Source: Patescibacteria group bacterium (GTDB lineage Bacteria > Patescibacteriota > Patescibacteriia > UBA1558 > UBA10009). Taken from it: a DNA stretch of 64,000 bases. A program made the translations under genes and the position numbers. Shown piece after piece: positions 30,062-62,840 of the stretch. Under the pieces are notes generated by a model, which saw nothing but the letters and a program-made list of their open reading frames with translations, was not told the DNA's origin and ran no database searches. The stretch is from contig JAHISB010000018.1 of the NCBI GenBank assembly GCA_018818425.1, forward strand, positions 16,390 through 80,389, given 5' to 3'. How positions within the stretch are numbered: position 1 is the first letter of the stretch; each line of letters starts with the position of its first letter.

Positions 30062-30087
30062 AGAAATTATTTTTTTGATAAGTTTAT

Positions 30088-30967: not shown

Positions 30968-30978
30968 TTTATTGTACC

Positions 30979-31863: not shown

Positions 31864-32056
31864 ATATCATCATTATATTCTTTTTTCACGATTTTGTCAA
31901 CATAACAGTGAAAAATTGTTTAAAAATGTAAATTTTCACTGTTTTGATATGTTTGTAGTATAATAGACTACACAAATAACGTGATGCGCTAATTCCCCAT
32001 TTTCCAAACACTTCCACAAAAAACCGAAAAATGCTAAAATATGATAGCATTAATCT

Positions 32057-41946: not shown

Positions 41947-43446
41947 ATGAATTCAAACACCAATTTAAAAATCCTTCTGGTTTATCCTAAATTCCCGGAA
42001 ACTTTCTGGAGTTTTAAATATGCTTTAAAGTTTATTATTAAAAAAGCCACTAACCCGCCCTTAGGGCTTTTGACGGTTGCGGCCATGCTGCCAACAGCAT
42101 GGGAGCAAAAGCTGATTGATCTGAACATTACCACCATGGAAGATAATGACTTAAAGCAAGCTGATTATGTTTTTCTTTCAGCTATGTCCATTCAACAAAA
42201 TTCAGCCAAAGAAATTATTTCAAGATGCCGGCAATTAGGCGTCAAGGTCGTGGCTGGCGGACCGCTTTTTACCAATAATCAAGAGGAGTTTAACGAGGTT
42301 GATTATTTGGTGCTTAATGAAGCCGAGCTTACCTTGCCCCGGTTTCTGGAAGATTTAAAAAAAGGCTCGCCCCAGCATCTCTACCAAACAGATCAATGGG
42401 CCAATTTAGAAACTACTCCTCTGCCCCTCTGGCGCCTGGCAGATATTAAAAAGTATGCTTCGTTAAACATTCAATACTCGCGCGGCTGTCCTTTTAACTG
42501 TGAGTTCTGCGATATTACTTTGCTTTATGGACACCGGCCCAGAACTAAAACTAAAGAACAGGTAATGGCCGAGCTGGACAGTCTTTATGAGCAGGGCTGG
42601 CGCAGCAGCGTCTTTTTTGTTGATGATAATTTTATCGGCAATAAAGATAAATTAAAAAAAGAAATTCTGCCGGCCATTACCGCCTGGCAACAGCGGAAAA
42701 AATACCCCTTTACTTTTTTAACCCAGGCCTCCGTCAACCTGGCGGACGATGAGGAGTTAATCCGGCTGATGGTCGAAGCGGGCTTTAATACCGTTTTTGT
42801 CGGCATAGAAACCCCGCACGAAGAAAGCTTAGCTGAATGCGCCAAATACCAAAATAAGAACCGCGATTTAATCGCCAATGTTAAAAAAATTCAGCGGCTG
42901 GGCTTGCAGGTGCAGGCCGGCTTTATCCTGGGCTTTGACAGCGACCCCTTATCAATTTTTGAAAAACAAATTAAATTCATTCAAAACAGCGGGATTGTTA
43001 CCGCCATGGTCGGCCTTTTAAACGCCCTTAAAGGCACCAAGCTGTATCAACGTTTAGATGCTGATCGCCGGCTGTTAGCCGGCATCACGGGCAATAACAC
43101 CGATTTTTCCATAAACTTTATTCCTAAAATGAACCGCCAAACCTTGATGGAGGGCTACAAAAAAGTATTAAGCACAATTTATGCGCCAAAATATTATTAT
43201 AAAAGGGTTAGAACTTTTTTACGGGAATACCAGCCGAGGCAGAAGATAAAATTCAAAATTAACGGCCGCGAGTTATGGGCCCTTGGCAAATCAATTATCT
43301 ATTTAGGCATAATCGGCAAAGAAAGATTCCAATATTGGAAGCTTGTTTTTTGGACCATCTTTACCCGGCCCAAACTTTTCCCCCTGGCGGTAACCTTATC
43401 GATTTACGGCTTTCACTTTAGAAAAATTTTTGAAAAATATCTATGA
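41947..43446 (+). CDS. B12-binding domain radical SAM protein
   Basis: N-terminal cobalamin-binding-like domain, then the CPFNCEFCD radical-SAM cluster. Start moved to the Met (MNSNTNLKILL); the upstream part of the ORF is translation of GC-rich repeats. Confidence 0.75.
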   Translation: MNSNTNLKILLVYPKFPETFWSFKYALKFIIKKATNPPLGLLTVAAMLPTAWEQKLIDLNITTMEDNDLKQADYVFLSAMSIQQNSAKEIISRCRQLGVKVVAGGPLFTNNQEEFNEVDYLVLNEAELTLPRFLEDLKKGSPQHLYQTDQWANLETTPLPLWRLADIKKYASLNIQYSRGCPFNCEFCDITLLYGHRPRTKTKEQVMAELDSLYEQGWRSSVFFVDDNFIGNKDKLKKEILPAITAWQQRKKYPFTFLTQASVNLADDEELIRLMVEAGFNTVFVGIETPHEESLAECAKYQNKNRDLIANVKKIQRLGLQVQAGFILGFDSDPLSIFEKQIKFIQNSGIVTAMVGLLNALKGTKLYQRLDADRRLLAGITGNNTDFSINFIPKMNRQTLMEGYKKVLSTIYAPKYYYKRVRTFLREYQPRQKIKFKINGRELWALGKSIIYLGIIGKERFQYWKLVFWTIFTRPKLFPLAVTLSIYGFHFRKIFEKYL

Positions 43447-43585: not shown

Positions 43586-44146
43586 ATGGAAGTAAACGAA
43601 CAACAAATTATTATCAATTGTCAGCAGGGCAATTTAGAGGAATTTAGCCGTCTTTACGACAAATATATCAAAAAAATCTATAATTTTGTCTATTACAGAA
43701 CGCACCATAAAGAAACAGCTGAAGATTTAACCAGCCAAACTTTTACCAAGTGCTTGGAAAATCTTAACAAATTCAGCGATAAAAAGGGAACATTCTCTTC
43801 CTGGCTCTACCAGATTGCCCGTAATACAGTGATTGATTATTACAGGACCTTTAAAAAAGAAACTGATATTGACGATGTTTGGGATTTACAGACTGATGAT
43901 GATGCGCCAAGAGATGTTGATACCAAAATGAAGCTTGAAAAAATTGCCGAATATCTAAAACTTTTAGACAAAGAGCAAAGAGATTTAATTATCATGCGGA
44001 TCTGGGACGGTTTATCTTACAAAGAAATTGCCGCCATTGCCAAAAAGAGTGAAGCTTCGCTAAAGATGATGTTCTCCCGAACTATAAAAAGATTGAAAGA
44101 AAAAGATGCGCTGGCCCTGATACTCTTGTTGCTATTAATTGAATAA
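43586..44146 (+). CDS. ECF-subfamily RNA polymerase sigma-70 factor
   Basis: Region 2 (FVYYRTHHKETAEDLTSQTF, YQIARNTVIDYYR) and region 4 (LSYKEIAAIAKKSEASLKMMFSRTIKRL). Confidence 0.85.
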   Translation: MEVNEQQIIINCQQGNLEEFSRLYDKYIKKIYNFVYYRTHHKETAEDLTSQTFTKCLENLNKFSDKKGTFSSWLYQIARNTVIDYYRTFKKETDIDDVWDLQTDDDAPRDVDTKMKLEKIAEYLKLLDKEQRDLIIMRIWDGLSYKEIAAIAKKSEASLKMMFSRTIKRLKEKDALALILLLLLIE

Positions 44147-44238
44147 ATATTTACCAATTCGCAATTATTCGAGAATTAGCGACATATTCGCGGGGTAAAT
44201 TCGAGATTTATTAGCATTATATTCGTAATAAAAAATAT

Positions 44239-45768
44239 ATGAACAACGAAATTCAAAAAATTCTGGAAGATTTATATCAGATTGACAAAAGTTTCAGAAA
44301 ATACGAAAAGCAGCTTATTAAAATAATTAACGAACTTATGGTTTCACGGCCGGAAACAAAGTTCGATGAAAACTTTCGGCAAGAGCTTAAAACTAAACTT
44401 TTATATCGAGCCGAAGAATTAATGAAAAAGGGGAATAAATTAACCTTTAATCTTATGAACTTAAAAAATATCTATTACTTGGCAGGGGTTGTTGCTATCT
44501 TGCTCTTAATTATTGTTCCGACTATTTACTTAACCAAACAAGGCGCAGTTATCCCCTTAAGTTTTAATCTTAATATTTCTAAAACTTCCGACAACGCTTT
44601 CGGCTCTTTGTCAGCTGAACAAGGGGATAAATCAGCAAATTTAACAGCAGAAGACGGTATTGGAGCAGCCGCTCCGATTGTTGCCTCTGAAAATATTAGA
44701 GTTCAGGGTGGCGGCGGTGGCGGCTACGCCATGCCTGCGCCTGACTTTATCAGCTACAGCTATATCTACAGCGGCGGCGAAATAACTGTGCCGGCCGATA
44801 AAATGGAGGTTTTAAAGAGAATCAAAGAAGCCGGCCTGGGCCCGAATCTGGAAGCTTTTTTAGAAAAATTCAGCTTTGATTCAGTAGACTTGGGCAAGTT
44901 TGCCGGCTCCAAACTGCAAAACATCAGCTTTGCCGAAAACAAGGAATTCGGCTATATAATAAATATTAATATGGAAGAAGGTGCCTTGGTAATTTACGAA
45001 AACTACCTTAAATGGCCCAATCCTTTTAAAGACTGCGGGGATGAAAAATGCTACCAGCAGAATCAATTAAAAATTTCCGACATTCCAGATGATCAGACTA
45101 TAATAAATATTGCCAATAAATTTGTAAACGAATACGGCATCAATACCAACGGTTATGGTCAGCCGGTAGTCGACAGCCGCTGGCGCCAATCCTACGAAAG
45201 CTATCCCGACCAAGAAAACTTTTATGTGCCCGACACCCTTAGCGTAATCTATCCTCAAACTATTAATGGCCAGCCAGTTTACGATGAATCCGGCTATGAG
45301 CAGGGTTTAACTATAAATATTAATATCAGATACAATAAGGTCAGCAACGTTACCAACTTCTTTTCCCAAAACTACCAGAGCTCCGCTTACCAAACGGCTG
45401 ATGCCGATACCATAAAAGCCTCGGCCGAAAACGGCGGCTACCATAACTATCTCTACTATGATGCTTCCGGCCAAACCGATGAGCTGGAGCTGGGCAGCCC
45501 TGAACTGGCTTATATAAAAATCTGGAACTACCGCAGCGGCCAAACCGATGAGCTGATTGTGCCCGCCTATATTTTCCCCCTTCTTAACCCGCCGGCAGCG
45601 CCGGGCTTCTATAAAAAAAACGTGGTCGTGCCGCTGATTAAGGAACTGCTTGAAGCTGACGAATCCAGGCCGATTATTGAACCAATGCCTTTGCTTAAAG
45701 AAAGTTCCGCCACCGCGCCGAGCCAAGACCAGCCCGCCGAAACTGTGATTGATACAACTGACGAATAA
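44239..45768 (+). CDS. single-pass membrane protein, putative anti-sigma factor
   Basis: Immediately downstream of the ECF sigma gene. A cytoplasmic N-terminus of about 85 aa, one TM helix (IYYLAGVVAILLLIIVPTIYL) and an extracellular domain of about 400 aa. The assignment is positional only. Confidence 0.4.
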   Translation: MNNEIQKILEDLYQIDKSFRKYEKQLIKIINELMVSRPETKFDENFRQELKTKLLYRAEELMKKGNKLTFNLMNLKNIYYLAGVVAILLLIIVPTIYLTKQGAVIPLSFNLNISKTSDNAFGSLSAEQGDKSANLTAEDGIGAAAPIVASENIRVQGGGGGGYAMPAPDFISYSYIYSGGEITVPADKMEVLKRIKEAGLGPNLEAFLEKFSFDSVDLGKFAGSKLQNISFAENKEFGYIININMEEGALVIYENYLKWPNPFKDCGDEKCYQQNQLKISDIPDDQTIINIANKFVNEYGINTNGYGQPVVDSRWRQSYESYPDQENFYVPDTLSVIYPQTINGQPVYDESGYEQGLTININIRYNKVSNVTNFFSQNYQSSAYQTADADTIKASAENGGYHNYLYYDASGQTDELELGSPELAYIKIWNYRSGQTDELIVPAYIFPLLNPPAAPGFYKKNVVVPLIKELLEADESRPIIEPMPLLKESSATAPSQDQPAETVIDTTDE

Positions 45769-45858: not shown

Positions 45859-45888
45859 ATTGTCAAAATATTTAAAAAATTGTATAAT
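45859..45888 (+). promoter_or_regulatory. sigma70-like promoter TTGTCA-N17-TATAAT upstream of galU
   Basis: Direct read: aaTTGTCAaaatatttaaaaaattgTATAATaac. Confidence 0.4.
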
Positions 45889-45902: not shown

Positions 45903-46787
45903 ATGATTAAAAAGGGTTCAAAACAAACAATCACCAAAGCCATTATTCCGGTGGCTGGCTATGGCACCAGGTTTTTGCCGGCCACTAAAGCCCAGCCCAA
46001 AGAAATGCTGCCCATAGTTGATAAGCCGGTGATTCAATATATTGTAGAAGCGGCAGTGGCCGCCGGCATTAAGGAAATTATTATTGTTACCAGCACCAAT
46101 AAAAGGGCGGTGGAAGACCATTTCGACAGATCGCCGGAGCTGGAAAAATGGCTAGCCAAATCGGGCAAAAAACAGCTGTTAGAAGAACTGCGCTATATTC
46201 CCCGCATGGCCAACTTTGTTTACATCCGCCAAAAAGGCCCGATCGGCAATGGCACGCCGGTTTTAAACGCCAAGCCCCTGATCGGCAACGAACCCTTTGC
46301 GGTTTTTTACGGCGATGAATTTTATACCGGCAAAACTTCCTGGATAAAGCAGATGATAAAAGTTTATGAAAAATATCAGGATCCGGTCATGGCTTTAGCC
46401 AAAGTAACTAAAGAAGAGACTAATCGTTATGGCATTGTTGACGGCATTGAAGTGGATAAGAATATCATTGAAATAAAAAGTATTGTTGAAAAGCCAGGCC
46501 CTAAAAAAGCCAAATCCAACTTAGCCAGCATTGGCGGCTATATCTTGACTCCTGATATTTTTCCAATTTTAGAAAATTTAAAGCCGGGCAAGGGCGGAGA
46601 AGTTTGGCTGGCAGATGCCGTAAAAAAATTAAGCCAAGAACGCCCGATTTATGGCTGTGAAATCAACGGCAAGCTTTATGATGCCGGCACTATTATGGGC
46701 TGGCTTAGAGCCAATGTGGAACTGGCCTTGGAACATAACAAAACCGGCGGCGAGTTTAAAAAATATCTGCGCCAACTAAAATATTAA
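45903..46787 (+). CDS. galU: UTP-glucose-1-phosphate uridylyltransferase
   Basis: [40 protein letters not shown] is the GalU signature. Confidence 0.9.
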   Translation: [294 protein letters not shown]

Positions 46788-46791: not shown

Positions 46792-48162
46792 ATGAAACAT
46801 AAAATAAAATTCCTTGTTTTGATCTTGACGGGAATTTTGCTGATAACCTCTGGCTTTTCCTGCAAACTTTTTCCCAGTAAACAAGCATCAGTATCCTTAA
46901 CCCAGACTATTAATTTAGAATACTGGGGCGTTTGGGACGAAAGCGCCGACCTGCAGCCGATTATTAATGATTTTAAAAACCAGCATCCTAATATTAATAT
47001 TACTTACCGCAAATTCCGCTACCAGGAATACGAACAAAAACTGTTAGAGGCCTGGGCCGAAGACAGGGGGCCGGATTTATACAGCATTCCCGTTGAATGG
47101 TTAAAAAAATACCAGAATCGCATTACTCCCCAGCCCGCCAAAGTTCAGCTGGCTTTTCAGGAAGTTAAAAAAACACTGGGCAAAACCGAAATCAGCACCA
47201 TTGTCAGGCAGATTCCCGCCTTTACCAGCTATGATATCAAAAACCAGTTTGTAGACACTGTTTATAACGATGTGATTATTGATGGCCAAATCTATGGTTT
47301 GCCTTTAAGCGTTGACAATTTGGCTTTATTTTATAACCGCGACCTTTTGGATGCCGCCGGCATTGCCACTCCGCCAACCAACTGGACCGAAGTCAAAGAA
47401 GCGGTTAAAAAAACCACAATTTTAAATTCACAAAATAACATTATTCAGGCCGGCATTGCCCTGGGTACGGCCGAAAATATTCCCCGGGCCGTTGATATTG
47501 TTTCTTTATTAATGATGCAAAACGGCGCCCAAATGATGAAAGGCAACAGCGTAAGCTTTCAGGAAGGCGAGTCATCCGGCTTTATACCAGGCCTGGAAGC
47601 TTTAAAATTCTATATTGATTTTGCCGACCCCATTAAAGAAGTTTATTGCTGGCACGAAAATATGCCCAATGCCCTGGATGCTTTTATTGAAGGCAAGGTA
47701 GCTATGGTTTATGGCTATTCTTATCAACTGCCGGTTATTAAAGGCCGCTCGCCCAAACTGGATATTGGCATTGCGCCCATGACGCAGATTCAAGGCAGTA
47801 ATGCCTCTATTAATTATGCCAATTACTGGGTAACCACCGTCTCTCATAAAGTTAAAAATGTTGATGCTGGCTGGGGCTTTTTAAACTTTGCCGCCAGGGA
47901 TATAGAAGTCAAAAAATATCTGGAAACCACCCAGCGGCCAGCCGCTTTAAGGACTGTCATTAATCAACAAAAAACCGACCCGGAACTGGCTGTTTTCGCC
48001 GAACAAGCCCTGACTGCCACCCATTGGTATAATGGCAGCGATGCTTTAAAAATGGAAGAAATATTTTTAAAAATGATAGAAGATTTTCCCCAGGCCACTA
48101 CTCCGGAAGGACTAATTAATATAATGACTAACGCGGCTCAACAAATCAATCTTACTCTATGA
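46792..48162 (+). CDS. extracellular solute-binding lipoprotein (SBP family 1, sugar type), orphan (no permease or ATPase nearby)
   Basis: Signal peptide with a lipobox-like SGFSC, then sugar-SBP-like blocks. No ABC permease or ATPase genes are adjacent. The stop overlaps the start of the first pilin-like gene (ATGA). Confidence 0.7.
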   Translation: MKHKIKFLVLILTGILLITSGFSCKLFPSKQASVSLTQTINLEYWGVWDESADLQPIINDFKNQHPNINITYRKFRYQEYEQKLLEAWAEDRGPDLYSIPVEWLKKYQNRITPQPAKVQLAFQEVKKTLGKTEISTIVRQIPAFTSYDIKNQFVDTVYNDVIIDGQIYGLPLSVDNLALFYNRDLLDAAGIATPPTNWTEVKEAVKKTTILNSQNNIIQAGIALGTAENIPRAVDIVSLLMMQNGAQMMKGNSVSFQEGESSGFIPGLEALKFYIDFADPIKEVYCWHENMPNALDAFIEGKVAMVYGYSYQLPVIKGRSPKLDIGIAPMTQIQGSNASINYANYWVTTVSHKVKNVDAGWGFLNFAARDIEVKKYLETTQRPAALRTVINQQKTDPELAVFAEQALTATHWYNGSDALKMEEIFLKMIEDFPQATTPEGLINIMTNAAQQINLTL

Positions 48163-49064
48163 TAAAATTTATCAAAATAAGTTTAGGTTTTTCAATTCTA
48201 GGTCTGGTGATTTTACCAGGGCTGGCTTATGCCCAAATCCTGCCTCCCTGCACCGCCACCGGCAACTGCGGCATTTGCGATTTTTTGCAGACTTTTGTCA
48301 ATATAATCCGCTGGGTTTTGGGCATTCTGGGCGGCAGCGCTTTATTTTTATTAATTTGGCACGGCTTTACCTGGCTCTCTTCCGCCGGTAATAAAGAAAG
48401 GGTGGATGCGGGCAAAAAGGGCTTGATTCATACTGTTATAGGCCTGGTAATTATTATTGGTTCTTGGTTTTTGGTTAACTTAACTTTAGTTTTACTATTA
48501 ACTTCCACTGAACAAGCCAGCCAGGGGCAAGTGGTCCAATCGTTATTCAGCGGCAATGTGCCCTGGTACCAATACTGCCAAGGCGCTGGCAATGCTTTTT
48601 GCCAGCAGGGCTGGGGCGAAGGCACGCCCTGCGGCAGTGGCAAATTCTGCTTGAAAAGAGTCGGCAGCGATAATAAACCTGAAACCACCTACTCGTGTAG
48701 CAATAAAGGCGCCAATAATCAGACTGAATACGAAAATGCCTGCCATTACTGGGCCTGCCACCCGACCAGAAAGGAGTATCAATATTACAACTGCGTGAGC
48801 GATGCTAATGATTGCGTTTCTGGGAAAATTCTCGGGCCGGAATATTGCAGCGGGTCCGGCATGGTTTGCTGCGAACGTCAAGACAAGCAAAAATATCAGT
48901 GTCCGGGCGTTTCTCAATCAGAATTAAGTTCATGTTTTTCAGTTAGTTACATCTCTCAAGATAGCTGCGAAGAGGAATGCCCTGACTGGTGTGAAAGTCA
49001 AAACTGCCCTAATTATCAATGCGAAGAATCTTCTCCCTCATATCAATGTAATTGTAGCGAATAA
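48159..49064 (+). CDS. pilin-like array member a: TrbC/VirB2-like two-helix core + 190-aa Cys-rich C-terminal domain
   Basis: Signal peptide, LLIWHGFTWLSSAGNKERVDAGKK loop, a second hydrophobic helix, then a domain with more than 25 Cys. Confidence 0.6.
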   Translation: MIKFIKISLGFSILGLVILPGLAYAQILPPCTATGNCGICDFLQTFVNIIRWVLGILGGSALFLLIWHGFTWLSSAGNKERVDAGKKGLIHTVIGLVIIIGSWFLVNLTLVLLLTSTEQASQGQVVQSLFSGNVPWYQYCQGAGNAFCQQGWGEGTPCGSGKFCLKRVGSDNKPETTYSCSNKGANNQTEYENACHYWACHPTRKEYQYYNCVSDANDCVSGKILGPEYCSGSGMVCCERQDKQKYQCPGVSQSELSSCFSVSYISQDSCEEECPDWCESQNCPNYQCEESSPSYQCNCSE

Positions 49065-49091
49065 ATAATCAGCTTTTAACTTTTTAACTAT

Positions 49092-49484
49092 ATGAAAATT
49101 TTTTTAAAAAAACTGCTTTTGATAACAATTTTAGTTTTATTAATTGGCTGCCCGACAGCTATAATTATAGCTCAACAAAATACACAAAATACCCAAAGCG
49201 CCCAAGGGGGCGCGGTAACCGGTAGTTTAAACAACCCCTTAGGCAGCCCTAATTTGGGGCCCCAGCAAATTTACGGGCGGCTAATCTACTCTTTTATGGG
49301 CCTTACCGGCATAGTTGCTTTATTAATGTTTATTCTTGGCGGCTTTCAGTGGATGACAGCCGGCGGCAGTCCGGACAAAATTAAAAAGGGCAGGGATACC
49401 TTGATGTGGGCAGTGCTGGGCTTAATAGTTATTTTCTCCAGTTATGCCATTCTTAGAGCCATTCTGGAAACTCTGCAGTTTTAA
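49092..49484 (+). CDS. pilin-like array member b (core only)
   Basis: FILGGFQWMTAGGSPDKIKKGRD core. Confidence 0.6.
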   Translation: MKIFLKKLLLITILVLLIGCPTAIIIAQQNTQNTQSAQGGAVTGSLNNPLGSPNLGPQQIYGRLIYSFMGLTGIVALLMFILGGFQWMTAGGSPDKIKKGRDTLMWAVLGLIVIFSSYAILRAILETLQF

Positions 49485-49694
49485 TAATCAGCCCTAATTT
49501 TGATTGTGGATAAAAGTTGGCAAAAACTATTATTTTATTGTATAATAATATCAGTCTGACATCTAAACTATCCGCTTTATTCCACTATTTTTAGAGATTA
49601 AAATATTAAAATATTAAACTTAATTAAAATTCAATTGATTGAATAATGTCTTTAAATAAGAACATTATTTCAAATCACGAAAGGAATTAAAGAT

Positions 49695-50060
49695 ATGAAA
49701 AAATATCTAAGGAATGGACTGGCTGGCTTAAGCGGCTTAACTCTGCTGCTGGCGCCTTTGCTGGTCAAGGCCCAGATCTCTTTGGGCATCGAGTATGGTT
49801 CTGCTCTAAATTTAGGCAGCAGGGATGTTAGGGCTATGGTTTCCGACATTATTAATGTGTTGCTGGGGTTTTTAGGCATTATTGCCGTGGTTATTATTCT
49901 TTTGGGCGGCTTTAAGTGGATGACGGCCGGCGGCAACGAAGATAAAGTCGGCGAAGCTAAAAAGCTTATTGGCGCTGGCATTATCGGCTTGATTATCATC
50001 CTGGCTGCTTATGCTATTGCCACCTTTATTGTTACTCAATTGGCAGAAGTAACCTATTAA
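49695..50060 (+). CDS. pilin-like array member c (core only)
   Basis: ILLGGFKWMTAGGNEDKVGEAKK core. Good RBS (aaaggaattaaagat ATG). Confidence 0.65.
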   Translation: MKKYLRNGLAGLSGLTLLLAPLLVKAQISLGIEYGSALNLGSRDVRAMVSDIINVLLGFLGIIAVVIILLGGFKWMTAGGNEDKVGEAKKLIGAGIIGLIIILAAYAIATFIVTQLAEVTY

Positions 50061-50223
50061 CTAAAATTGATATAACTTGAGTAATAGCTCATCCTTGCTA
50101 CTTTTAAAAGGGTGGGCTAATGCTTGGATTATATTTAAGTGACAAGTGATCAACTCGGTCTAAGCCGGGTAAATGACAAATGTAAGTAATCTTGGTCATT
50201 TGTCGCTTGTCATTTTTATTTTT

Positions 50224-50688
50224 ATGATTAAGAAGGGGAAAATAGTTATTAAGATTACTCTGGCTTTATTTTTTTCCGCGCTTGTTTGTTTTACAGTAAT
50301 CGCTGGCTCGGCCATGGCTCAAACAGAGCCGCCGGCAAGCCCCGGCTCCAACGCCGCCGAGCGGGCTTTGAATATTTTAGACGCTACGGCCCAGGAGGCC
50401 AAAATAATCTCCAGCGCCCAGGCCGCGCCCACCGCTTACGGCATTATCGGCGATGTCATTAATATAATTCTTAGCTTTTTAGGAGTTGTCTTTTTGCTTC
50501 TAATTATATACGGCGGGATTACCTGGATGAGAGGCGGCACGGTTGTCGGCGGCGGCGCGACCAAAGTAGATATCAACAAGGCCAAGCAGATCATCACTCA
50601 GGCAACTATCGGCTTAGTTATTGTTCTTTTTGCCTATCTGGTAACCAACTTTGTGATTTTTAAAATTATTGAAGTCGCCGTAGACTAA
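50224..50688 (+). CDS. pilin-like array member d
   Basis: IYGGITWMRGGTVVGGGATKVDINKAKQ is a divergent core with an insertion. Confidence 0.55.
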   Translation: MIKKGKIVIKITLALFFSALVCFTVIAGSAMAQTEPPASPGSNAAERALNILDATAQEAKIISSAQAAPTAYGIIGDVINIILSFLGVVFLLLIIYGGITWMRGGTVVGGGATKVDINKAKQIITQATIGLVIVLFAYLVTNFVIFKIIEVAVD

Positions 50689-50692
50689 AACT

Positions 50693-51262
50693 ATGAATCA
50701 CTCTAAATTAACACTAGCCATGCTTATTATTATTTCCTGTTTGCTGATAACTCCGCTTATCAGTTATGCTGTCAATATTAGCGATGTTATTAACGACTTA
50801 GACAAAACCGCTCAAAATGCTAGAATAATAGGAGAAAACCCGGCCGAAGCCGCCACTATTTACGATATTATCGGCCAGATACTTAATTTGGTTTTAACCT
50901 CTTTGGGAGTCATCTTCCTGCTTTTAATGATTTATGGCGGCCTGACCTGGATGACGGCCGGCGGCAATCAGGAAAAAGTTAAAACAGCCGGCTCAATAAT
51001 CAATAAAGCGGTTATCGGCTTAATAATAATTCTATTAGCCTGGCTTTTAACCAATTTTGTTATTTTTAGAATTATTGATGTAACCACCAGCAGTACTGTT
51101 CTTAGTAATTGTAACCCCGCTGACTGCGATAACGAATGTAAAGATGCTGGCGCTCCGACGGGTTGCTGTACCAGAGGCAGCGAGGAGCCAAGCAGCCCTT
51201 ATTATGATGATATTAGCTGTGAATGCCAAACCGATCCCGATATTTCATTAATTTGCCAATAA
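50693..51262 (+). CDS. pilin-like array member e, with a Cys-rich C-terminal tail
   Basis: IYGGLTWMTAGGNQEKVKTAGS core. The C-terminus is CNPADCDNECKDAGAPTGCCTRG...CECQTDPDISLICQ. Confidence 0.6.
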   Translation: MNHSKLTLAMLIIISCLLITPLISYAVNISDVINDLDKTAQNARIIGENPAEAATIYDIIGQILNLVLTSLGVIFLLLMIYGGLTWMTAGGNQEKVKTAGSIINKAVIGLIIILLAWLLTNFVIFRIIDVTTSSTVLSNCNPADCDNECKDAGAPTGCCTRGSEEPSSPYYDDISCECQTDPDISLICQ

Positions 51263-51290
51263 ACTTTCCATAAAATATTTCTAAAACTCT

Positions 51291-51878
51291 ATGACTAAAA
51301 AAATTACTATCCTTTTTTCAATTATAATCTTAGCGGGAATTCTCCTCTTGCCGGCTTTGACTTTAGCCCAGCAAACCTGCCCCTACAGTACTCTGGAAGA
51401 ATGCCAAAAATGGGCTCTTAATAAAGTGGGTGATAAAATTGGCTATGGCTCTGCCGGCGCAGTTACATCAGCCGACTTATCTTATACCATCGGCCAGGTA
51501 GTTTCTTATGTTTTGGCTTTTTTGGGCGTGGCCTTTTTAGTTATTGTGGTTTACTCCGGCATCCAGTGGATGACGGCCGGCGGCAATGCGGAAGCCGTTA
51601 AAAAAGCCCGCGATAGATTAGTTAACGCCGCTATTGGTTTAGTCATTGTTTTAGGCGCTTATGCTATTACTTGGTTTGTGGTAAGTAAGTTACAAACTTC
51701 CGTTTCTCCACCAACTTCAACTCCTCCTTATACGCCCCCAACTGCTTCTTGTTTAGATTATACTAATTGCGCTGGTGAATTTAAAACTTGGTGTGATGGT
51801 CAAAGTGGAATAACACAATGCCCGCAAGATCCTAACGAACCAAATTATCATAAATGTTACTGTGATTTAAGTACATGA
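51291..51878 (+). CDS. pilin-like array member f, with a Cys-rich C-terminal tail
   Basis: VYSGIQWMTAGGNAEAVKKARD core. The C-terminus is a P/T-rich linker followed by a Cys-rich domain. Confidence 0.6.
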   Translation: MTKKITILFSIIILAGILLLPALTLAQQTCPYSTLEECQKWALNKVGDKIGYGSAGAVTSADLSYTIGQVVSYVLAFLGVAFLVIVVYSGIQWMTAGGNAEAVKKARDRLVNAAIGLVIVLGAYAITWFVVSKLQTSVSPPTSTPPYTPPTASCLDYTNCAGEFKTWCDGQSGITQCPQDPNEPNYHKCYCDLST

Positions 51879-51913
51879 TATAATAATTATTTTAATTAAT
51901 AACAATTTAAAAA

Positions 51914-52315
51914 ATGTTTAAAAAAATAACTATTACTCTTCTCATATTATGGACTGTTATACCAATGTATTATGCGCTAGCGGAAACTGGAGAAACACCA
52001 GCTAATCCGCTAACTATGAACCTTCTTCCTGATCTTCAACAAGCCGCTACCGGTGCACAATATGGCTCAGCCACTGAAAACACCATCCCCCAAATAGTCG
52101 GCTTAATTGTCAGGGCGGTTTTAAGCTTTGTGGGCGCCATCTTTTTTATTCTAATTATCTTTTCCGGCATCCAGTGGATGACCGCCGGCGGCAACGAGGA
52201 AAAAATAACCAAAGCCCGCGCCAGAATGACCAATGCCGCTATTGGCCTGGCCATTACCACGGCCGCCTACTTTATTACCTGGTTTATCAGCGAAGCTTTA
52301 TTATCCAATGTTTAA
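51914..52315 (+). CDS. pilin-like array member g (core only)
   Basis: IFSGIQWMTAGGNEEKITKARA core. Confidence 0.6.
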   Translation: MFKKITITLLILWTVIPMYYALAETGETPANPLTMNLLPDLQQAATGAQYGSATENTIPQIVGLIVRAVLSFVGAIFFILIIFSGIQWMTAGGNEEKITKARARMTNAAIGLAITTAAYFITWFISEALLSNV

Positions 52316-53120
52316 AATCACAGCTACAATCTGTTTTTTATTGCTGATGTTCTTTTTTATTACCGCCACTGCTTTGGCTCAAGATATCGGCATCACCAAT
52401 TCCTTAAAAACCATTGCCGACACCGGCGGTTTTAAAACCGACAGCGTAGCTGACGATGCCTTTTTAAATACCGCTGCCGGCGGATTAATAGCTATGGCTC
52501 TGGGCTTAGTAGGCCTGTTATTTTTAGGTTTAACTATTTATTCCGGCATCCAGTGGATGACGGCCGGCGGCAACGAAGAGCAGGTCGCCAAAGCCCGGAA
52601 AAAAATAATTAACGCCGCCATCGGCCTGGGCGTGGTTATTCTGGCTTATGTGATTTCCAACGCTGTTTTTGCCCTTTTTTATCAGATATCCGAACGCGAC
52701 AATACCGGCATAACTCCGCAAGGCCTAGCCTGCCAAACCAGCAACGAGTGCCCGGGCAGTTATGTCTGCGTAGACAACCAGTGCAAAAAACTTTGCAGCA
52801 ATGACGGCGACTGCGAGTACCCCGGCGAGGTCTGCAATACCTGGACCGGCGCTTGCGAAACCGGCTGGGGCTCTAACTGCGAAAACAATTCCGACTGCCC
52901 GTCCCAGGCGCCAGTTTGCCAGTCGTTTTTAATCTGGAAAATGTGCACCTGCACCGGACCTAATAGCTGTGAAGGAATTACGCCTCCCAAACCTTACTGT
53001 ATGGACATAGAAACACAATCCCAGGGCTATTCAGAAAACCCTGCTGAATGCGTTCAATGCTACGAAGACAACCACTGTCCCGGCAGCAGCTGCAACCAAA
53101 ATACTCATACCTGTAATTAA
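52308..53120 (+). CDS. pilin-like array member h, with a 150-aa Cys-rich C-terminal domain ending in CNQNTHTC
   Basis: Start at MFKITAT, which overlaps the stop of member g. IYSGIQWMTAGGNEEQVAKARK core. EGF-like Cys spacing in the tail. Confidence 0.6.
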   Translation: MFKITATICFLLLMFFFITATALAQDIGITNSLKTIADTGGFKTDSVADDAFLNTAAGGLIAMALGLVGLLFLGLTIYSGIQWMTAGGNEEQVAKARKKIINAAIGLGVVILAYVISNAVFALFYQISERDNTGITPQGLACQTSNECPGSYVCVDNQCKKLCSNDGDCEYPGEVCNTWTGACETGWGSNCENNSDCPSQAPVCQSFLIWKMCTCTGPNSCEGITPPKPYCMDIETQSQGYSENPAECVQCYEDNHCPGSSCNQNTHTCN

Positions 53121-53121
53121 T

Positions 53122-54033
53122 ATGAAACTGAACTATAAAATAATAATCATTTCTGCAACTATGGCTTTAAGCTTTTTAATTCTGCAAAATGCTGAAGCTT
53201 TTACAAATGATTTTACAAATTATTTAAACCAGGCGGCCCAGCAAGCCGATTTTCCCGCTACCCAAGCCCAGGAAAATTTTTTAAATTCTAGGGTCGGGCA
53301 GATAATCGGGGTAATTGTCAGTTTTATCGGCATTCTTTTTTTAGGATTGACTGTTTACTCCGGCATCCAGTGGATGACCGCCGGCGGCAACGAAGAAACA
53401 GTAACCAAAGCCCGAAAAAGAGTGGTTAACGGCGCCATTGGCGTTGGCTTAACCTTGTGCGCTTTTATAATTGCCAATTTCTACTTTAGTTATTTTGAAA
53501 GCAAGCTTTTAACCACGCCTTCTACAATTACCACAGGGCCTGTTGGCTACCAAGCCGCTGACTGCCAAACCAATGCCCAGTGCCAAGACCGCCAGGTTAT
53601 TACGCCCGGCGCCGGCATAGCCAACCCGTCCAATCCTAACGGACCCCGTGTAATGTTCTGCTTCGGCGGCAAATGCGTGGAATGCAGCGGCTCTTGTCCT
53701 GCTGGTTTTATGTGCGATTCTGGTTCAGGGCTATGCTTATCAGCTGCTGATGAATGTGGCAATATTGCCAGCATTTCTCAATGTGTTTTTCGCTCTGACT
53801 GCATTTGGGAAGCTGACCCTAACGGAACCGGCTGGGAAGACGGACTTTGTGTAGATTCTTCAAGTTATTCAACTAATTGTTTACCGCCCCAAGCGCCCTC
53901 CGCCGCTCCTTATTGCGTCTACGACAGTAGCCATGGCGGTTATTTATGGGTGGAGTGCGCTAATGATAATAATTGTCCTGGTTGGCTGGGCTTTAATAGT
54001 TGTAATCAAGTCACTCATGAATGTGTCCTTTAA
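53122..54033 (+). CDS. pilin-like array member i, with a 180-aa Cys-rich C-terminal domain ending in CNQVTHEC
   Basis: VYSGIQWMTAGGNEETVTKARK core. The C-terminal motif is shared with member h. Confidence 0.6.
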   Translation: MKLNYKIIIISATMALSFLILQNAEAFTNDFTNYLNQAAQQADFPATQAQENFLNSRVGQIIGVIVSFIGILFLGLTVYSGIQWMTAGGNEETVTKARKRVVNGAIGVGLTLCAFIIANFYFSYFESKLLTTPSTITTGPVGYQAADCQTNAQCQDRQVITPGAGIANPSNPNGPRVMFCFGGKCVECSGSCPAGFMCDSGSGLCLSAADECGNIASISQCVFRSDCIWEADPNGTGWEDGLCVDSSSYSTNCLPPQAPSAAPYCVYDSSHGGYLWVECANDNNCPGWLGFNSCNQVTHECVL

Positions 54034-54042
54034 TTAAAAACA

Positions 54043-54429
54043 ATGCTAAAAAAAACAAAATCAATCTGGCTGTGGCTGAATGTAATTTTCTTTTTTCTGC
54101 TGGCTAAAACCGCCTGGGCTTTTACTATTGCCAGTCCTAGGCAAACCTTGGAAAGCATCTCTGGCGGAGCTAATTTTACTGCCAGCAACAAGCCAATTCA
54201 GGAAATAGTTATAGCCATCATCTTTTTTGTGCTGGGCTTGCTGGGCATTCTTTTTTTAACCCTGATGATTATCGGCGGCATCCAGTGGATGACTTCCGGC
54301 GGCAACGAGGAGAAACTGGGCAAAGCCAAAGCCCGCGTTAAAAACGCTTTTATCGGCTTTGCCATTGTAATGATAAGCTACTCCATTACTGTCTTTATGG
54401 TTAATATGTTCAGCCGGTCAACTTTTTAA
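54043..54429 (+). CDS. pilin-like array member j (core only)
   Basis: IIGGIQWMTSGGNEEKLGKAKA core. Confidence 0.6.
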   Translation: MLKKTKSIWLWLNVIFFFLLAKTAWAFTIASPRQTLESISGGANFTASNKPIQEIVIAIIFFVLGLLGILFLTLMIIGGIQWMTSGGNEEKLGKAKARVKNAFIGFAIVMISYSITVFMVNMFSRSTF

Positions 54430-54434
54430 AATTT

Positions 54435-54848
54435 ATGTTGAAAAAAATTTTTTACTTATTTAATCTGGCTAGCTTATTCTGCTATGTTAAGATTGCCAAG
54501 GCCATTAATATTGATACTGATCCGTTAAACCGCTTAGAGTGGGCCTCGCAGCATGCCGGCTATAATGTCTATAATAAAACGCCCTTTCAGGCGGTTATTA
54601 TCACCATCATCCATTATGTGCTGGGTTTTGTGGGCATGATTTTTGTAGTCTTAATTTTAATAGCCGGCTACCAATGGATGACCTCCGGCGGCAACGAAGA
54701 AAAAATCGGCAAAGCCAGGGATAAATTAAGAGAAGCTGTTATAGGCCTAATAATTATTTTAATTGCCTGGTCCATAACCTGGTTTACAGCCAACATGCTG
54801 ATTAAATCCACCACGCCCGGTTACTACAGCTTTTTCCCTTGGCCGTAA
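54435..54848 (+). CDS. pilin-like array member k (core only)
   Basis: LIAGYQWMTSGGNEEKIGKARD core. Confidence 0.6.
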   Translation: MLKKIFYLFNLASLFCYVKIAKAINIDTDPLNRLEWASQHAGYNVYNKTPFQAVIITIIHYVLGFVGMIFVVLILIAGYQWMTSGGNEEKIGKARDKLREAVIGLIIILIAWSITWFTANMLIKSTTPGYYSFFPWP

Positions 54849-54888: not shown

Positions 54889-55916
54889 GTTCCCGCTCCT
54901 TGAGGGCGGGTTTTAATTTGTAGAACGTGCCGAAAGTATATCCCTGAACCTAGGGATTTTGATTCGGCATAAATCATAAAGATTGAGTGATGGCCGGCCG
55001 GAGTTGTGCACAAAGAATCCTTAAAATACATCACCTCAACCTGAACTCTTTCTCCGGCCAAAACCTCAAACTCTTTATGTTTACCAGGTTCTAATTTTCC
55101 TTCAAACCCAGCTATGAGTTTTGCCCAGTAAGGGGTATTGTTTATAATCACGCCCTTTCGGCGCAGGGCCTTTTCCAAATCCCGGTCATAGATAACAGCC
55201 AGCCGATCTGTCTTAATGGGGGTCCACAAGCTGATGCTGCTTACAGAAACTCTTTTCCAGCTATGGATCCTATCCTCAACTCTTAATTCGCCCCTGACCA
55301 TTAAGGGTTGGCCTTCTAATACTCTAACGGCCCTTTCTTTGCCTGGGAAAATCAGATAGCGGAGATTTCTTTTGCCAAGCACAGGAACTGTTATAGGCCG
55401 GCTGGATTGATTATTCACCAATACTTTAAAGGCCTTTGCTGCCTTCTTCTTAGGAGGGCCATTCAATTCTAATTTACTAACTTTACCGGGCTGGTCTTTT
55501 ATAATTTCCTCCAAGTTATTTTTATGGTCAATAACTTTTTTGCCACCCTTGATTGTTACTATCTTAATCTTCAAACCTTTAAAGAGGGTCAATCCTTGGT
55601 CGGCAAAATAGCTAATCAGCAGGCCCGCCTTGGCCTTAGGCCACTCCCATTTTTCCCGGAATTTGACCAAAGCGCCCTGTTGATTGTACTCTTGCCTGCT
55701 GGCAGTAACTTTAGGCGTTATGGCCAGTAAAGAATCCAAACTAACCTGCTTTTGCGAACCGGGTCCTAGTACCTTAACCATAACCATTTCTGATTGATCA
55801 TACACTATGGTTATTTCCAGCCAGCAATCAGATGGATTGCTTAGCTCCAGGGTGTAATTGCCGGCCCAGCTGACTGCGGCCAGCATCAAGCCAATGATCG
55901 TTAATGATCTTTTCAT
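54870..55916 (-). CDS. secreted hypothetical protein
   Basis: Start taken at MKRSLTIIGLMLAAVSWA (signal peptide), with a GGAG RBS upstream. No recognisable domain. Confidence 0.5.
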   Translation of the reverse strand: MKRSLTIIGLMLAAVSWAGNYTLELSNPSDCWLEITIVYDQSEMVMVKVLGPGSQKQVSLDSLLAITPKVTASRQEYNQQGALVKFREKWEWPKAKAGLLISYFADQGLTLFKGLKIKIVTIKGGKKVIDHKNNLEEIIKDQPGKVSKLELNGPPKKKAAKAFKVLVNNQSSRPITVPVLGKRNLRYLIFPGKERAVRVLEGQPLMVRGELRVEDRIHSWKRVSVSSISLWTPIKTDRLAVIYDRDLEKALRRKGVIINNTPYWAKLIAGFEGKLEPGKHKEFEVLAGERVQVEVMYFKDSLCTTPAGHHSIFMIYAESKSLGSGIYFRHVLQIKTRPQGAGTGRLRL

Positions 55917-56021: not shown

Positions 56022-58010
56022 ATGAAAATAAGTAAATTAATAAATTTTTTCAAGAAAAAAAGCTGGTTGATTCTTTGGCTGGCTATTGGCTTATATTTTT
56101 TGATTTTTTCCTTAATCTGCATCTGGAAATATTTTAATTTTGGCTACAACGGCCTGGATTTAGCCATTATTAACCAGGTTTTTTATAATTCGGCCCAGGG
56201 CAATCTTTTTGGCCTGACTATTCACCCCCATTCTTATTTAGGCGACCACTTTGCTTTGATTCTTATTCTGCTTTTGCCTTTTTATTACTTGTGGCAGCAT
56301 CCCATCAATCTTTTAATCTTACAATCTTTAATTTTAGCTCTGTGCGCCTGGCCCCTGTATTTAATTGCCAAACATAAATTATCTAATGCCTGGCCTTTAT
56401 TTATTGCCCTGGCCTGGCTGACAAATCCTTTTGTCCAGAATATTAATATCTTTGAGTTTCATTTTCTGCCCTGGGCAATTTTCTTTTTGTTCTGGACTTT
56501 TTATTTTTACCAGCAAAAAAACTTGGCGGCTTTTTTAGTCTTTGCTGTTTTGAGTTTGGCAGTCAGAGAGGATGTGGCTTTAGTTGTTTTGATGTTTTCG
56601 GCATTGGCTCTGATTAACAGACGTTCTAAAGTTTGGATTTTTACGCCCGGTTTAATGGCCCTAAGCTGGTTTGCCGCGGCCACAACATTTATTGCTTCTA
56701 TTACGCCTACCGGCAGTTACAAATTTTTTTATTACTACTCCTGGCTGGGCGGAAATTTAAACGAAATTTTGACCAATGCTTTAGTTGAACCCCAGCTAAT
56801 TTTATACCGCTTCTTGGCTTTAAATAATCTGCTTTTTATTTTAGCTCTGCTGCTGCCCTTTGCTTTTATCTTTTTTGACCTTGCGCTGCTCCTTTTAGGC
56901 CTGCTCGTTTTTCTGCAGCTTTCGCTGGGCGGCTCTAATAATTCATTGATTGTTCTTAAAACCCATTACTCCAGCTTGCTCTTGCCAGCCCTGTTTATTG
57001 GCTATGCGTATGGTTTGGCCAAGTTGGGTCAGACAAAATTCAAGTTTTTTAAATTTAAAAAATATCTCTTTAAAGAAAGAGGATTATTGGTAATGATTAT
57101 CGGCGCGGCCGCAATCTATAGCTGTCTAGCTTTGGGGCCGCTGCCCGCAGTTGTTAAACAGCTGTTTAAGCCGGGCTCCTTTTCAGAGACCAGGGAATTA
57201 AAAACTGAATTTTACCAAAGCCTGCCCCAAACACAAAGCATAGCCGCCTCTTACGAATTTTTAACTAATCTTTCCTCGCGGCCCAGCATTTATTCTTTGC
57301 ACTATGCCTATATCGGCAAAAAGCAGTTTAGCGATATTGATTATAAACTGCCGGCAGACACCCGGACTTTGCTTTTTGATTTTGACGATCTGGTGACCTA
57401 CTCGGTTCAATTCCCTAACAGCAGCCAGTGGCAGAAGTATTATTTAACTGGTGATGATAATTTTAGAAAAATTATTCAGGCGGGAAATTACGGCGTGGTT
57501 AAAATAGCCGACACCTTGGTCAGAATGGATAAAAATGCTGAAACTGATATTCATCTATATCAAACCGCTCAAAAATTTACTGATATTCAACATCCTCAAA
57601 ATATTGACTTTGGCAACGGTTTAAAATTTCTGGGCTGGTCTGATAATCCGCCTCTTTTGGATTCTGATAAAAATTTCTTGCCCGCGGCTCTTTATTTTCA
57701 AACTAAGCAAAGAATAGAAAAAGACTATCAGTTAAAGCTGACGCTTAACAACGAGGAAGGGCAGATTGTTAAGCAAAAATATTATCCTCTGGCCTATGGG
57801 CTATACCCAACCAGCGAATGGCAAGCCAACGAAATAGTCAAAATCAACTATTGGTTTTTACTGCCTCAAAAAATAGCTGACAGTAATTATCAGCTAGAGT
57901 TGCAGTTGGTCTACTTAGAGGGCTTTTTAAAACTAAACGGCCTCCGCTCGGCCGTGCCTCAAATCACTCAAGAAACTATTTTAGAACCAAAAATTACATT
58001 GATTCCCTAA
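56022..58010 (+). CDS. large polytopic membrane protein with a C-terminal extracytoplasmic domain (DUF2079 / GT-C-like putative glycosyltransferase)
   Basis: 662 aa. About 10 or more TM helices in the N-terminal 370 aa, then a soluble domain. Confidence 0.45.
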   Translation: MKISKLINFFKKKSWLILWLAIGLYFLIFSLICIWKYFNFGYNGLDLAIINQVFYNSAQGNLFGLTIHPHSYLGDHFALILILLLPFYYLWQHPINLLILQSLILALCAWPLYLIAKHKLSNAWPLFIALAWLTNPFVQNINIFEFHFLPWAIFFLFWTFYFYQQKNLAAFLVFAVLSLAVREDVALVVLMFSALALINRRSKVWIFTPGLMALSWFAAATTFIASITPTGSYKFFYYYSWLGGNLNEILTNALVEPQLILYRFLALNNLLFILALLLPFAFIFFDLALLLLGLLVFLQLSLGGSNNSLIVLKTHYSSLLLPALFIGYAYGLAKLGQTKFKFFKFKKYLFKERGLLVMIIGAAAIYSCLALGPLPAVVKQLFKPGSFSETRELKTEFYQSLPQTQSIAASYEFLTNLSSRPSIYSLHYAYIGKKQFSDIDYKLPADTRTLLFDFDDLVTYSVQFPNSSQWQKYYLTGDDNFRKIIQAGNYGVVKIADTLVRMDKNAETDIHLYQTAQKFTDIQHPQNIDFGNGLKFLGWSDNPPLLDSDKNFLPAALYFQTKQRIEKDYQLKLTLNNEEGQIVKQKYYPLAYGLYPTSEWQANEIVKINYWFLLPQKIADSNYQLELQLVYLEGFLKLNGLRSAVPQITQETILEPKITLIP

Positions 58011-58022
58011 AACACCCTAGTT

Positions 58023-59537
58023 TCATTTAAGGACTTGATAAATTTCCGCGTCCTTATTTTGATATATTAATTTTAAATAATCTTGAAGGCCAGGATTGTA
58101 ATCGCCTAATCTTTTTTCAATATCGCTGTAAAATAAATAATCTATGTTATTCTGCTGTAAAAAAATTTTCTTTTCCTGATCAAACTGATTATCTTTAAAA
58201 AACCACTCAATTTTATCAAAATTTTCCTTAAAGCTGGTAAAATAGCCGCCGGCTAAATAAGAAATGTGTCCGGTATAACCAGAGATAACTGTATTCCAAG
58301 TGCCAAAATCAGCAAAAATTCTGCTTTCTGTCGGCAAATTATCTTTCATCCAGTAAAATATTTCTATATATTTTCTTGCTATATAATGCGGGGGTCCGTG
58401 GAATTTAATAATTAATAGCTCATAACTAAAAATGGAGAAATAGCTTTGAGTTAAAAATAAAATAATTATTATAGCTGTAATTATCCTGCTGAATTGCCTT
58501 TTTAATTTTATTAAAATAAATTTAAATCCATGATAGGCTAAAATGGTCAAAGGGATCGATAAGCCTAAAACGAAGCGACGATTAAATTGAATTTGAGAAA
58601 AAATTATAAACAAAGAAGATAAACACCATAATATTAAATACCAGTATATCTCTTCCTTTCTCTTCTTTATCGCTCCAATAATAGCTAAAGGAGAAAGCAA
58701 GCCATAACCATAAATTAAAAACTGCCAACTAGGCAAGGGAGTAAAATTTTGCATAGCCCAACGGCTTAAAGCTTCTTCAGCCGAAAAGATATAATAATAG
58801 TATACAGCTCCAAGAGTTACTGATAATATAGTAATTAAAGCCGGTAAAAAATTTTTAAATTTTTTGGTGGATAAATATCTATAAATAGACCAACTTAAAA
58901 TAACTACCAATAAAGAGACGGCATCATAAAAATGAACTAAAAATAATAATAACGCCCCTAAAAAAATAGTAAAAAGATGAATATTTTTGTGAGTTTTAAA
59001 ATATTTTAAAACTGCGTGATAAATTAAGATAAATAAAACTAAAACTAAAGCAAATAAGGGGCTAAAGTATAAATTATAAAAGGTATCTTTTTCAATCAGC
59101 CAAGTAAAAATACCAGCGGCAAATATACAAAAAGGAAATAACCAAATATTTTGTTCTAAATTAAAAAACTCCTTTAAAAATTTTCTTAAAAGAATACAGA
59201 AAATAATTGCAAAGATTACTTTAAAAAGTTGATAAACTAAAAAAATGTTTAAGCTGAATATTTTAACTAGCCAGCCCATTATTAGCCATAAAGGATGAAA
59301 AAATAAGTCTCGTTGCTCTATGGGATTATATAAATTTTTAAAAAGAACTTTTCCTTGAGCCGCTTGAGTGATAAAAGAAAAGTGGCCTGTCATATCCCCC
59401 ACTCTAGTGGGTTGATTGCCAATATAATAGAATTCTTCATTAGAATAAAAATAACCCGCCAGATGAATAAAGGTAATTAAAAAAACCAAAACAATAACGG
59501 TTAAAATAAAAACTTTTCTTTCTTTATTGACAGCCAT
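58023..59537 (-). CDS. polytopic membrane protein, paralog family (GT-C-like), member 1
   Basis: The N-terminal TM helix, the YYxG/NQP..GD motif and the C-terminal block (IDYLFY...LGDYNP...YQNKDAEIYQV) are shared with 59574..61193 and 61193..62839. Confidence 0.5.
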   Translation of the reverse strand: MAVNKERKVFILTVIVLVFLITFIHLAGYFYSNEEFYYIGNQPTRVGDMTGHFSFITQAAQGKVLFKNLYNPIEQRDLFFHPLWLIMGWLVKIFSLNIFLVYQLFKVIFAIIFCILLRKFLKEFFNLEQNIWLFPFCIFAAGIFTWLIEKDTFYNLYFSPLFALVLVLFILIYHAVLKYFKTHKNIHLFTIFLGALLLFLVHFYDAVSLLVVILSWSIYRYLSTKKFKNFLPALITILSVTLGAVYYYYIFSAEEALSRWAMQNFTPLPSWQFLIYGYGLLSPLAIIGAIKKRKEEIYWYLILWCLSSLFIIFSQIQFNRRFVLGLSIPLTILAYHGFKFILIKLKRQFSRIITAIIIILFLTQSYFSIFSYELLIIKFHGPPHYIARKYIEIFYWMKDNLPTESRIFADFGTWNTVISGYTGHISYLAGGYFTSFKENFDKIEWFFKDNQFDQEKKIFLQQNNIDYLFYSDIEKRLGDYNPGLQDYLKLIYQNKDAEIYQVLK

Positions 59538-59573
59538 AAAAAATTTAATCTTTGCGCTTAAAAAGCTCTATGA

Positions 59574-62839: not shown

Positions 62840-62840
62840 T

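Follow-up and report, generated by a model that had tools for sequence, protein, structure and literature searches.

A stretch of 64,000 nucleotides (nt) from a Patescibacteria group bacterium (contig JAHISB010000018.1; the whole stretch is hereafter called the window) carries eleven consecutive open reading frames (ORFs), named a to k, on its + strand at 48159-54848. The intergenic gaps range from -8 to 210 nt, and the products are divergent members of PF18895, the family T4SS_pilin, in which T4SS stands for type IV secretion system. The ORF coordinates agree with an initial annotation of this DNA, which had described eleven same-strand genes with gaps of -8 to about 210 nt. We propose herein, at a probability of roughly 0.55, that the array encodes the specialised subunits from which a T4SS encoded elsewhere would assemble a VirB2-type surface filament, or a display system, for contact with the host. 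The paralogs are kept as collinear orthologs in related genomes and are therefore best read as specialised subunits of one structure. The link to a T4SS comes from Southlakia epibionticum, whose essential T4SS cluster includes homologous arrays (PMC10633639).

Arrays of this kind are already known. A search of 3,035 Patescibacteria genomes with PF04956 (TrbC/VirB2) and PF18895 recovered 441 VirB2 arrays of 2-11 genes in 383 assemblies (PMC12102498, 2025). Their mean identity was 25% and the maximum 54%, and they were likened to the VirB2 paralogs of Bartonella and Anaplasma (PMC12102498). That survey scored arrays near virB4 (Fig. S9 legend) and found them mainly in Microgenomatia and Saccharimonadia (PMC12102498). 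In S. epibionticum, the pilin genes within the T4SS cluster are essential (PMC10633639). The arrays of S. epibionticum ML1, the "Sec secreted array" of Nanosynbacter lyticus TM7x and the arrays of the survey (PMC12102498) belong to the same Pfam family and phylum as the array described here. They likewise consist of tandem same-strand genes of low mutual identity, which encode a signal peptide and a two-helix core, with no relaxase nearby. Since divergent VirB2-like arrays of 2-11 genes have been published (PMC12102498; PMC10633639; PMC12857230), the initial view that no such array had been described fails. The version found in class ABY1 differs by its genomic context and by its extended subunits. 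Unlike the published arrays, the present array and 79 related ABY1-type loci are not near virB4, and the array follows genes for an NTP_transferase and a solute-binding protein (SBP) lipoprotein. Moreover, the published array literature that was searched makes no mention of Cys-rich or adhesin-domain C-terminal extensions, or of collinear orthology among the paralogs.

Family membership and predicted topology

Membership of the array in PF18895 is established at the level of profile comparison. The gathering threshold of this family is 26.6 bits, and ten of the eleven proteins exceed it (31.2-46.0 bits, E 2e-7 to 6e-12). The remaining protein, d, falls short at 17.9 bits; it shares 54% identity with e and is recovered by a hidden Markov model (HMM) of the core built from the array. 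An NCBI protein with the name "pilin [Patescibacteria group bacterium]" has the same sequence as pilin g (100% identity). More than 4,000 homologs of the array pilins were found, and those that bear a name are called pilin and come from Patescibacteria. These results bear out the earlier suggestion that the proteins belong to the pilin family annotated in genomes of the Candidate Phyla Radiation (CPR). NCBIfam additionally gives weak matches to a "pilin-like conjugal transfer protein" of a Mycoplasma integrative and conjugative element.

Homology to the canonical pilins, as well as the formation of a pilus, is what we infer by analogy. VirB2, TrbC and TraA (PF04956) have in common with the array proteins a signal peptide, a helix-loop-helix hairpin, a basic loop and a predicted orientation with both termini outside. 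They differ in being single-copy in T4SS operons and in having no large C-terminal domains, and their sequence similarity to the array is sub-threshold. Some of them are cyclised or acetylated.

All eleven proteins follow one plan, as judged from hydropathy and alignment: a Sec-type signal peptide with a terminal A-x-A, then an acidic N-terminal segment of variable sequence and two hydrophobic helices joined by a basic loop. An AlphaFold2 (AF2) model of g, with a predicted local distance difference test (pLDDT) score of 84.5, shows a helix for the signal peptide, another short one and a long hairpin, the helices of which (57-89 and 95-132) are modelled at a pLDDT above 90. Both lines of evidence uphold the signal peptide and helix-loop-helix architecture first assigned to the array. 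The loop, G-x-x-W-M-T-A/S-G-G-N-E-E-K..K-A-R/K, had been called almost invariant; this is true of nine members, while a and d depart from it, the latter with a 6-residue insertion. Across 86 homologs the loop is the best-conserved region, which suggests a conserved partner or a lipid contact.

The loop contains three to five Lys and Arg residues in nine of the eleven members (one in c, two in e), whereas the N-terminal segments and the tails described below are net acidic (K+R versus D+E in the tails: a, 11/22; h, 5/18; i, 5/17). Because the loop is basic and the ends acidic, and because the parity of Cys residues and the fusion of adhesin-type (Ig-like, TIG and lectin) domains in relatives agree with this, a topology with the N and C termini outside and the hairpin loop in the cytoplasm is a well-supported prediction. 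The initial annotation had placed both variable ends outside for the charge of the loop.

The parity is clearest in the orthogroup of a. Among its five independent orthologs, three Cys residues in the N-terminal segment always accompany an odd number in the tail (21, 13, 11, 1 and 1). The total is thus always even, which suggests a disulfide joining the N-terminal segment to the tail. In pilin a and its orthologs in the related loci L003, L004, L008 and L009, the N-terminal segment, with a C-x5-C-x2-C motif, is 63% identical versus 56% for the core, the reverse of the other members.

Six members are short. These are b (49092-49484, 130 amino acids (aa), 46.0 bits against PF18895), c (49695-50060, 121 aa, 34.2 bits), d (50224-50688, from a probable start in an ORF that opens at 50173; 154 aa, with the divergent loop), g (51914-52315, 133 aa), j (54043-54429, 128 aa, 32.3 bits) and k (54435-54848, 137 aa, 36.2 bits). 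Pilins b, c, g and j are tail-less, and k ends in a short Cys-free tail.

Cysteine-rich tails and conservation in related arrays

The other five members extend past the hairpin into C-terminal tails. Pilin a (48159-49064, 301 aa, 41.2 bits) has a signal peptide, an N-terminal segment with 3 Cys, the hairpin core and a 184-aa tail with 21 Cys. Pilin e (50693-51262, 189 aa, 36.1 bits) has a tail of about 58 aa with 8 Cys, and f (51291-51878, 195 aa, 31.2 bits) has 2 Cys in its N-terminal segment and a tail with 6 Cys. Pilin h (52308-53120, from a probable start in an ORF that opens at 52233; 270 aa, 39.2 bits) overlaps g by 8 nt and has a 142-aa tail with 20 Cys, and i (53122-54033, 303 aa, 33.7 bits) has a 174-aa tail with 18 Cys. 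Pro/Ser/Thr-rich linkers precede the tails of f and i. Five Cys-rich tails had been noted from the start; the range then given, about 10-25 Cys, fits a, h and i but is too high for e and f.

The tails had also been called unrelated and EGF-like, and neither description survives. Those of h and i are homologous, with 33% identity over 317 aligned columns. Both are built of repeated C-x4-5-C-P-x3-5-C-x4-7-C modules and both have the C-N-Q-x-T-H-x-C terminus that was originally reported for them. Pfam, EGF models included, gave no match to any tail at E up to 1, and the PDB sequences gave none to the a and h tails at E up to 10. The only NCBIfam matches were weak ones to TIGR04201 (Myxo_Cys_RPT, the Myxococcus Cys-rich repeat), below its cut-off of 25 bits: h reached 16.3 bits (E 0.008) and i 13.2 bits over three stretches, while the tails of a, e and f had no match to this model. 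In Myxococcus, such Cys-rich repeats make up a rigid stalk outside the cell in TraA, a cell-surface receptor. The h and i modules are weakly alike to this stalk repeat; a PA14-like recognition domain is not present here. When the i tail was compared with 1.84 billion representative proteins, only itself and three repeat proteins (SpaA_2 repeats, TPR) were returned, and the latter were judged spurious because many weak repeat hits had been summed. The i tail is thus, as far as sequence comparison reaches, without detectable relatives beyond its orthologs.

Related arrays were examined by calling ORFs in 79 loci and searching them with the core HMM. The nearest loci in the genome collection come from Komeilibacteria, Magasanikbacteria, Falkowbacteria, Buchananbacteria and similar groups; Komeilibacteria and Magasanikbacteria have been placed in class ABY1 (PMC12102498 Table S1). 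The arrays contain 3-13 pilin genes, with a median of 7. At least one Cys-rich tail is present in 34 of 69 arrays, and the number of Cys residues is even in 73 of 89 Cys-bearing tails.

Genes a to k find their best matches, in order, in genes 1-11 of L003 at 31-68% identity. The matches are reciprocal for ten of the eleven genes, d being one-way, and nearly the same collinear correspondence holds for L004, L007, L008 and L009. Identity between paralogs within the array is 20-54%, and the longest exact DNA stretch that they share is about 22 nt. No long DNA repeats, inverted repeats or recombinase genes that could drive switching were found. Compared with orthologs, the core is on average 57% identical, the N-terminal segment 42% and the tail 33%; in the orthologs of i, the Cys columns of the tail are invariant and the intervening residues variable. 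Collinear one-to-one orthologs indicate an old, fixed and individually conserved set, not a shuffling cassette. The tips had been described as exchangeable and hypervariable, a description that does not agree with tails that sit at conserved positions in collinear orthologous arrays and retain their cysteine columns.

Much larger fusions occur in relatives. Six Magasanikbacteria-like genomes that have an SBP-linked array also have a separate locus (L044:4323-14755, L046, L055, L068, L075 and L078; L074 is a smaller related case) encoding a pair of proteins of about 700 aa and 2,750-3,470 aa with the same N-terminal core. These proteins contain 85-118 Cys, and Big_5, Big_7, TIG and Laminin_G_3 domains (Ig-like, TIG and lectin) lie C-terminal of the T4SS_pilin core. 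The locus order in the six genomes is signal peptidase S26, HisRS (hisS) and then the pair.

Some related proteins are double-core fusions, with two pilin cores and four predicted membrane helices in a single polypeptide (P0001-P0004; L020:7269, L022:7440 and L061:6177).

Genomic neighbourhood

Two genes precede the array on the + strand. The first, at 45903..46787, two genes upstream of the array, encodes a sugar-nucleotidyl transferase (PF00483, NTP_transferase), a homolog of which occurs in 44 of 82 sources. The second, at 46792..48162, encodes an SBP_bac_1 solute-binding protein with the lipobox SGFSC and shares its final 4 nt, with the stop codon, with the beginning of pilin a. Of the 60 related arrays that have an intact upstream side, 44 are immediately preceded by an SBP_bac_1 gene of the same orientation, the usual order being NTP-SBP-pilins. 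No ABC (ATP-binding cassette) permease or ATPase gene was found near the SBP gene in the window, and the SBP is therefore regarded as an orphan.

Matches to transcription signals are consistent with one long unit. A sigma-70-like promoter match (11/12) before the NTP_transferase gene (45860..45888, +) is a possible start of the transcription unit, a second such match (11/12) lies inside the 210-nt gap between b and c (49517..49546, +), and a hairpin resembling an intrinsic terminator, with 7 pairs (6 GC) and a T-run, lies directly 3' of pilin k (54892..54910, +); all three are consensus matches only. Scans with Rfam and for tRNAs found no RNA element within the array. The array is chromosomal and probably co-transcribed with the upstream sugar-nucleotidyl transferase and solute-binding lipoprotein genes. 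The window has the content of a core chromosome, with PolA, UvrB, RuvA, a MurE-type Mur ligase, RpoB, RpoC, FtsK and RecA, and on this ground a mobile element or conjugative plasmid was rejected.

Just upstream of the NTP_transferase-SBP-pilin unit (43586-45768, +) are genes for an extracytoplasmic function (ECF) sigma factor and for a 509-aa protein with a single transmembrane (TM) segment, which lacks a Pfam match and may be an anti-sigma factor; outside the window, the two genes occur together only in the closest relatives, L001 and L007. Downstream, at 56022-63833 and likewise at L086:3765-15172, a gene for a DUF2079 membrane protein is followed by a low-GC (0.22-0.33) run of genes for paralogous 9-10-TM proteins of about 500-550 aa. 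One neighbour matches PMT_2, a GT-C mannosyltransferase family, and in relatives GT2, PGI and GT4/GT5 genes recur nearby. The downstream genes suggest an envelope or protein-glycosylation cluster, the products of which might modify the Ser/Thr/Pro linkers of the pilins.

The rest of the window includes a gene for a B12-binding radical SAM protein with DUF4070 (41863-43446, +), which has no evident link to the array. A low-GC patch at 26000-32000 contains genes for a Gp49-like toxin (27788-28159), an rve-type transposase (30106-30945) and a Fic/DOC protein (30979-31863); another Fic/DOC gene is found at 40569-41627 and one for a GmrSD-type restriction enzyme at 392-1561. These transposase, Fic, toxin and GmrSD genes resemble mobile or defence cargo and seem to have nothing to do with the array.

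Filament assembly, competing explanations and significance

In the filament that we propose, the products would be exported by Sec, cleaved by signal peptidase and inserted into the cytoplasmic membrane, each as a hairpin whose loop faces the cytoplasm and whose two ends lie outside. A VirB4-type T4SS encoded elsewhere would, by analogy with VirB2, TrbC and TraA, extract the hairpins and build a heteromeric surface filament, within which the loops would line the lumen and the N-terminal segments and tails would face outward. The short members b, c, d, g, j and k would form the shaft, and a, e, f, h and i would serve as minor or tip subunits that display rigid cysteine-knotted modules toward the host cell. 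Minor pilins of type IV pili and type II secretion systems, such as CofB and TcpB, combine a pilin module with a large C-terminal domain and occur few per filament, at the tip. The tailed members follow the same logic, an N-terminal module bearing a bulky domain; the fold and the machinery are unrelated, and the likeness is an analogy only.

A T4SS encoded at a distance has a precedent in the ABY1 genome GW2011_GWC2_37_14. VirB4 is listed there at genes 246 and 802 (PMC12102498 Table S3; also TrsD, far from the VirB2 hits), and only three VirB2 hits are given, at genes 461, 463 and 531, none of which is marked as close to virB4 (PMC12102498 Table S3). The core HMM finds 11 pilin-core ORFs at locus L058 of the same genome. 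Taken together, the listing and the count indicate that relatives encode VirB4 elsewhere, and that the ABY1 array type seems to have escaped description.

Several results weigh against a filament. No member reaches the PF04956 threshold of 27.9 bits; the nearest to this model is c at 25.1 bits (E 2e-5), followed by k at 21.1 bits. A comparison by hhalign with four annotated plasmid VirB2 sequences gave a probability of 3.4%, though the Trp-containing loop was in register. The initial label TrbC/VirB2-like agrees with the PF18895 matches, and its link to the canonical pilins stays sub-threshold. Searches of PDB sequences with core profiles, and fold searches, recovered no solved pilin. The AF2 model of pilin i, made with 7 homologs, had a pLDDT of 49.8 and is unreliable, and the tail was too poorly modelled for a fold search to be made. 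As had been noted for the 64 kb, no VirB4, VirD4, VirB6 or relaxase domain occurs in window ORFs of at least 100 aa, nor in the 7.2 kb that follow the window on its right, which together cover 64 kb plus about 7 kb of a 104.4-kb metagenomic contig (ENA ERZ27247128 k141_561449). The 807-aa FtsK of the window has the full FtsK architecture. VirB4 was found within 10 kb of none of the 79 related loci, and no recurrent neighbour family corresponds to T4SS machinery; the P-loop proteins of at least 450 aa near related arrays are only FtsK, a PilB-type ATPase, ComM, ClpB and SMC. Tails of 140-185 aa, let alone the 700-3,470-aa fusions, are hard to fit on every subunit of a tight VirB2-type helix. 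Finally, an observed T4SS pilus in Patescibacteria is not reported in the literature consulted, and a 2025 review treats a monoderm T4SS pilus as an open question and a possibility (PMC12857230).

Much of this would suit the main rival, in which the PF18895 core is a non-polymerising two-helix anchor that displays N- and C-terminal ectodomains independently of any T4SS. The lack of VirB4 near the related loci, the uninformative fold and profile comparisons with real pilins and the awkwardness of adhesin-type tails in a helical pilus lattice all favour such an anchor, as does the tight coupling of the array to a lipoprotein gene amid envelope-glycan genes. Nonetheless, the most conserved part of the protein is the cytoplasm-facing loop, for which a passive anchor would have no use; beyond a short N-terminal segment, six members possess hardly any ectodomain and so would have nothing to anchor; and in Saccharimonadia an essential T4SS cluster contains homologous arrays. 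We therefore consider the anchor unlikely, while ranking it first among the alternatives.

A second alternative regards the paralogs as variants that can replace one another, for host range or for antigenic variation, each used for a different host strain. The copies in Bartonella and Anaplasma are thought to serve host-surface interaction and not DNA transfer, Trw being without a coupling protein. They lie in or beside complete diderm T4SS operons, are short, have no extra domains and are discussed as variants. Unlike them, the copies of the present array are old, individually conserved and partly domain-extended. Bartonella Trw trwL and the Anaplasma virB2 copies are, like the array, a tandem-multiplied VirB2-type pilin (cited in PMC12102498), and the variant role proposed for both has been suggested for Patescibacteria as well (PMC12102498). 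Eleven divergent copies with variable outward segments, and N-terminal segments and tails that evolve faster than the core, would be expected of such variants. On the contrary, the tight spacing and apparent co-transcription of the genes do not suit alternative use, and one-to-one orthology at only 31-68% identity shows that each copy is kept individually. An antigenic-variation cassette was accordingly rejected as the leading explanation on the collinear orthology and the absence of DNA repeats, and we regard interchangeable variants in general as improbable.

That the hairpins and the upstream SBP lipoprotein form a nutrient-capture or uptake device instead of an adhesive filament is very improbable: the position and 4-nt overlap of the orphan SBP gene, and the speculation in a review that the pilus may act as a conduit for uptake (PMC12857230), speak for it, but two-helix hairpins with Ig-like or lectin tails are unlike any known importer, no energising component is linked, and the SBP may merely share an operon with envelope genes.

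A broader generalisation can be put forward only tentatively. In ABY1-type Patescibacteria, a modular surface-display or filament system without genetic coupling to the T4SS may be built on the PF18895 hairpin as its shared base, with about 6-13 fixed specialised subunits, a co-expressed orphan SBP lipoprotein, flanking GT-C-type glycosyltransferases, disulfide-knotted stalks on some subunits and giant adhesins in sister loci. If true, this would be either a VirB2-type filament that is heteromeric and decorated with adhesins or a display system independent of the T4SS, for which there is no described counterpart among T4SS pilins.

T4SS genes and pilin arrays are essential for epibiotic growth in the sole Patescibacteria species tested genetically (PMC10633639), and the present array and its relatives place three constraints on what such pilins may do. 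The ends of the pilin core would be extracellular and able to carry adhesin-type domains. A conserved, ordered set of paralogs would point to a heteromeric structure rather than to variant switching. In a large clade, moreover, the genes that accompany the array are those for a solute-binding lipoprotein and for glycans, and not virB4. These constraints would alter the interpretation of T4SS pilin hits in CPR genomes.

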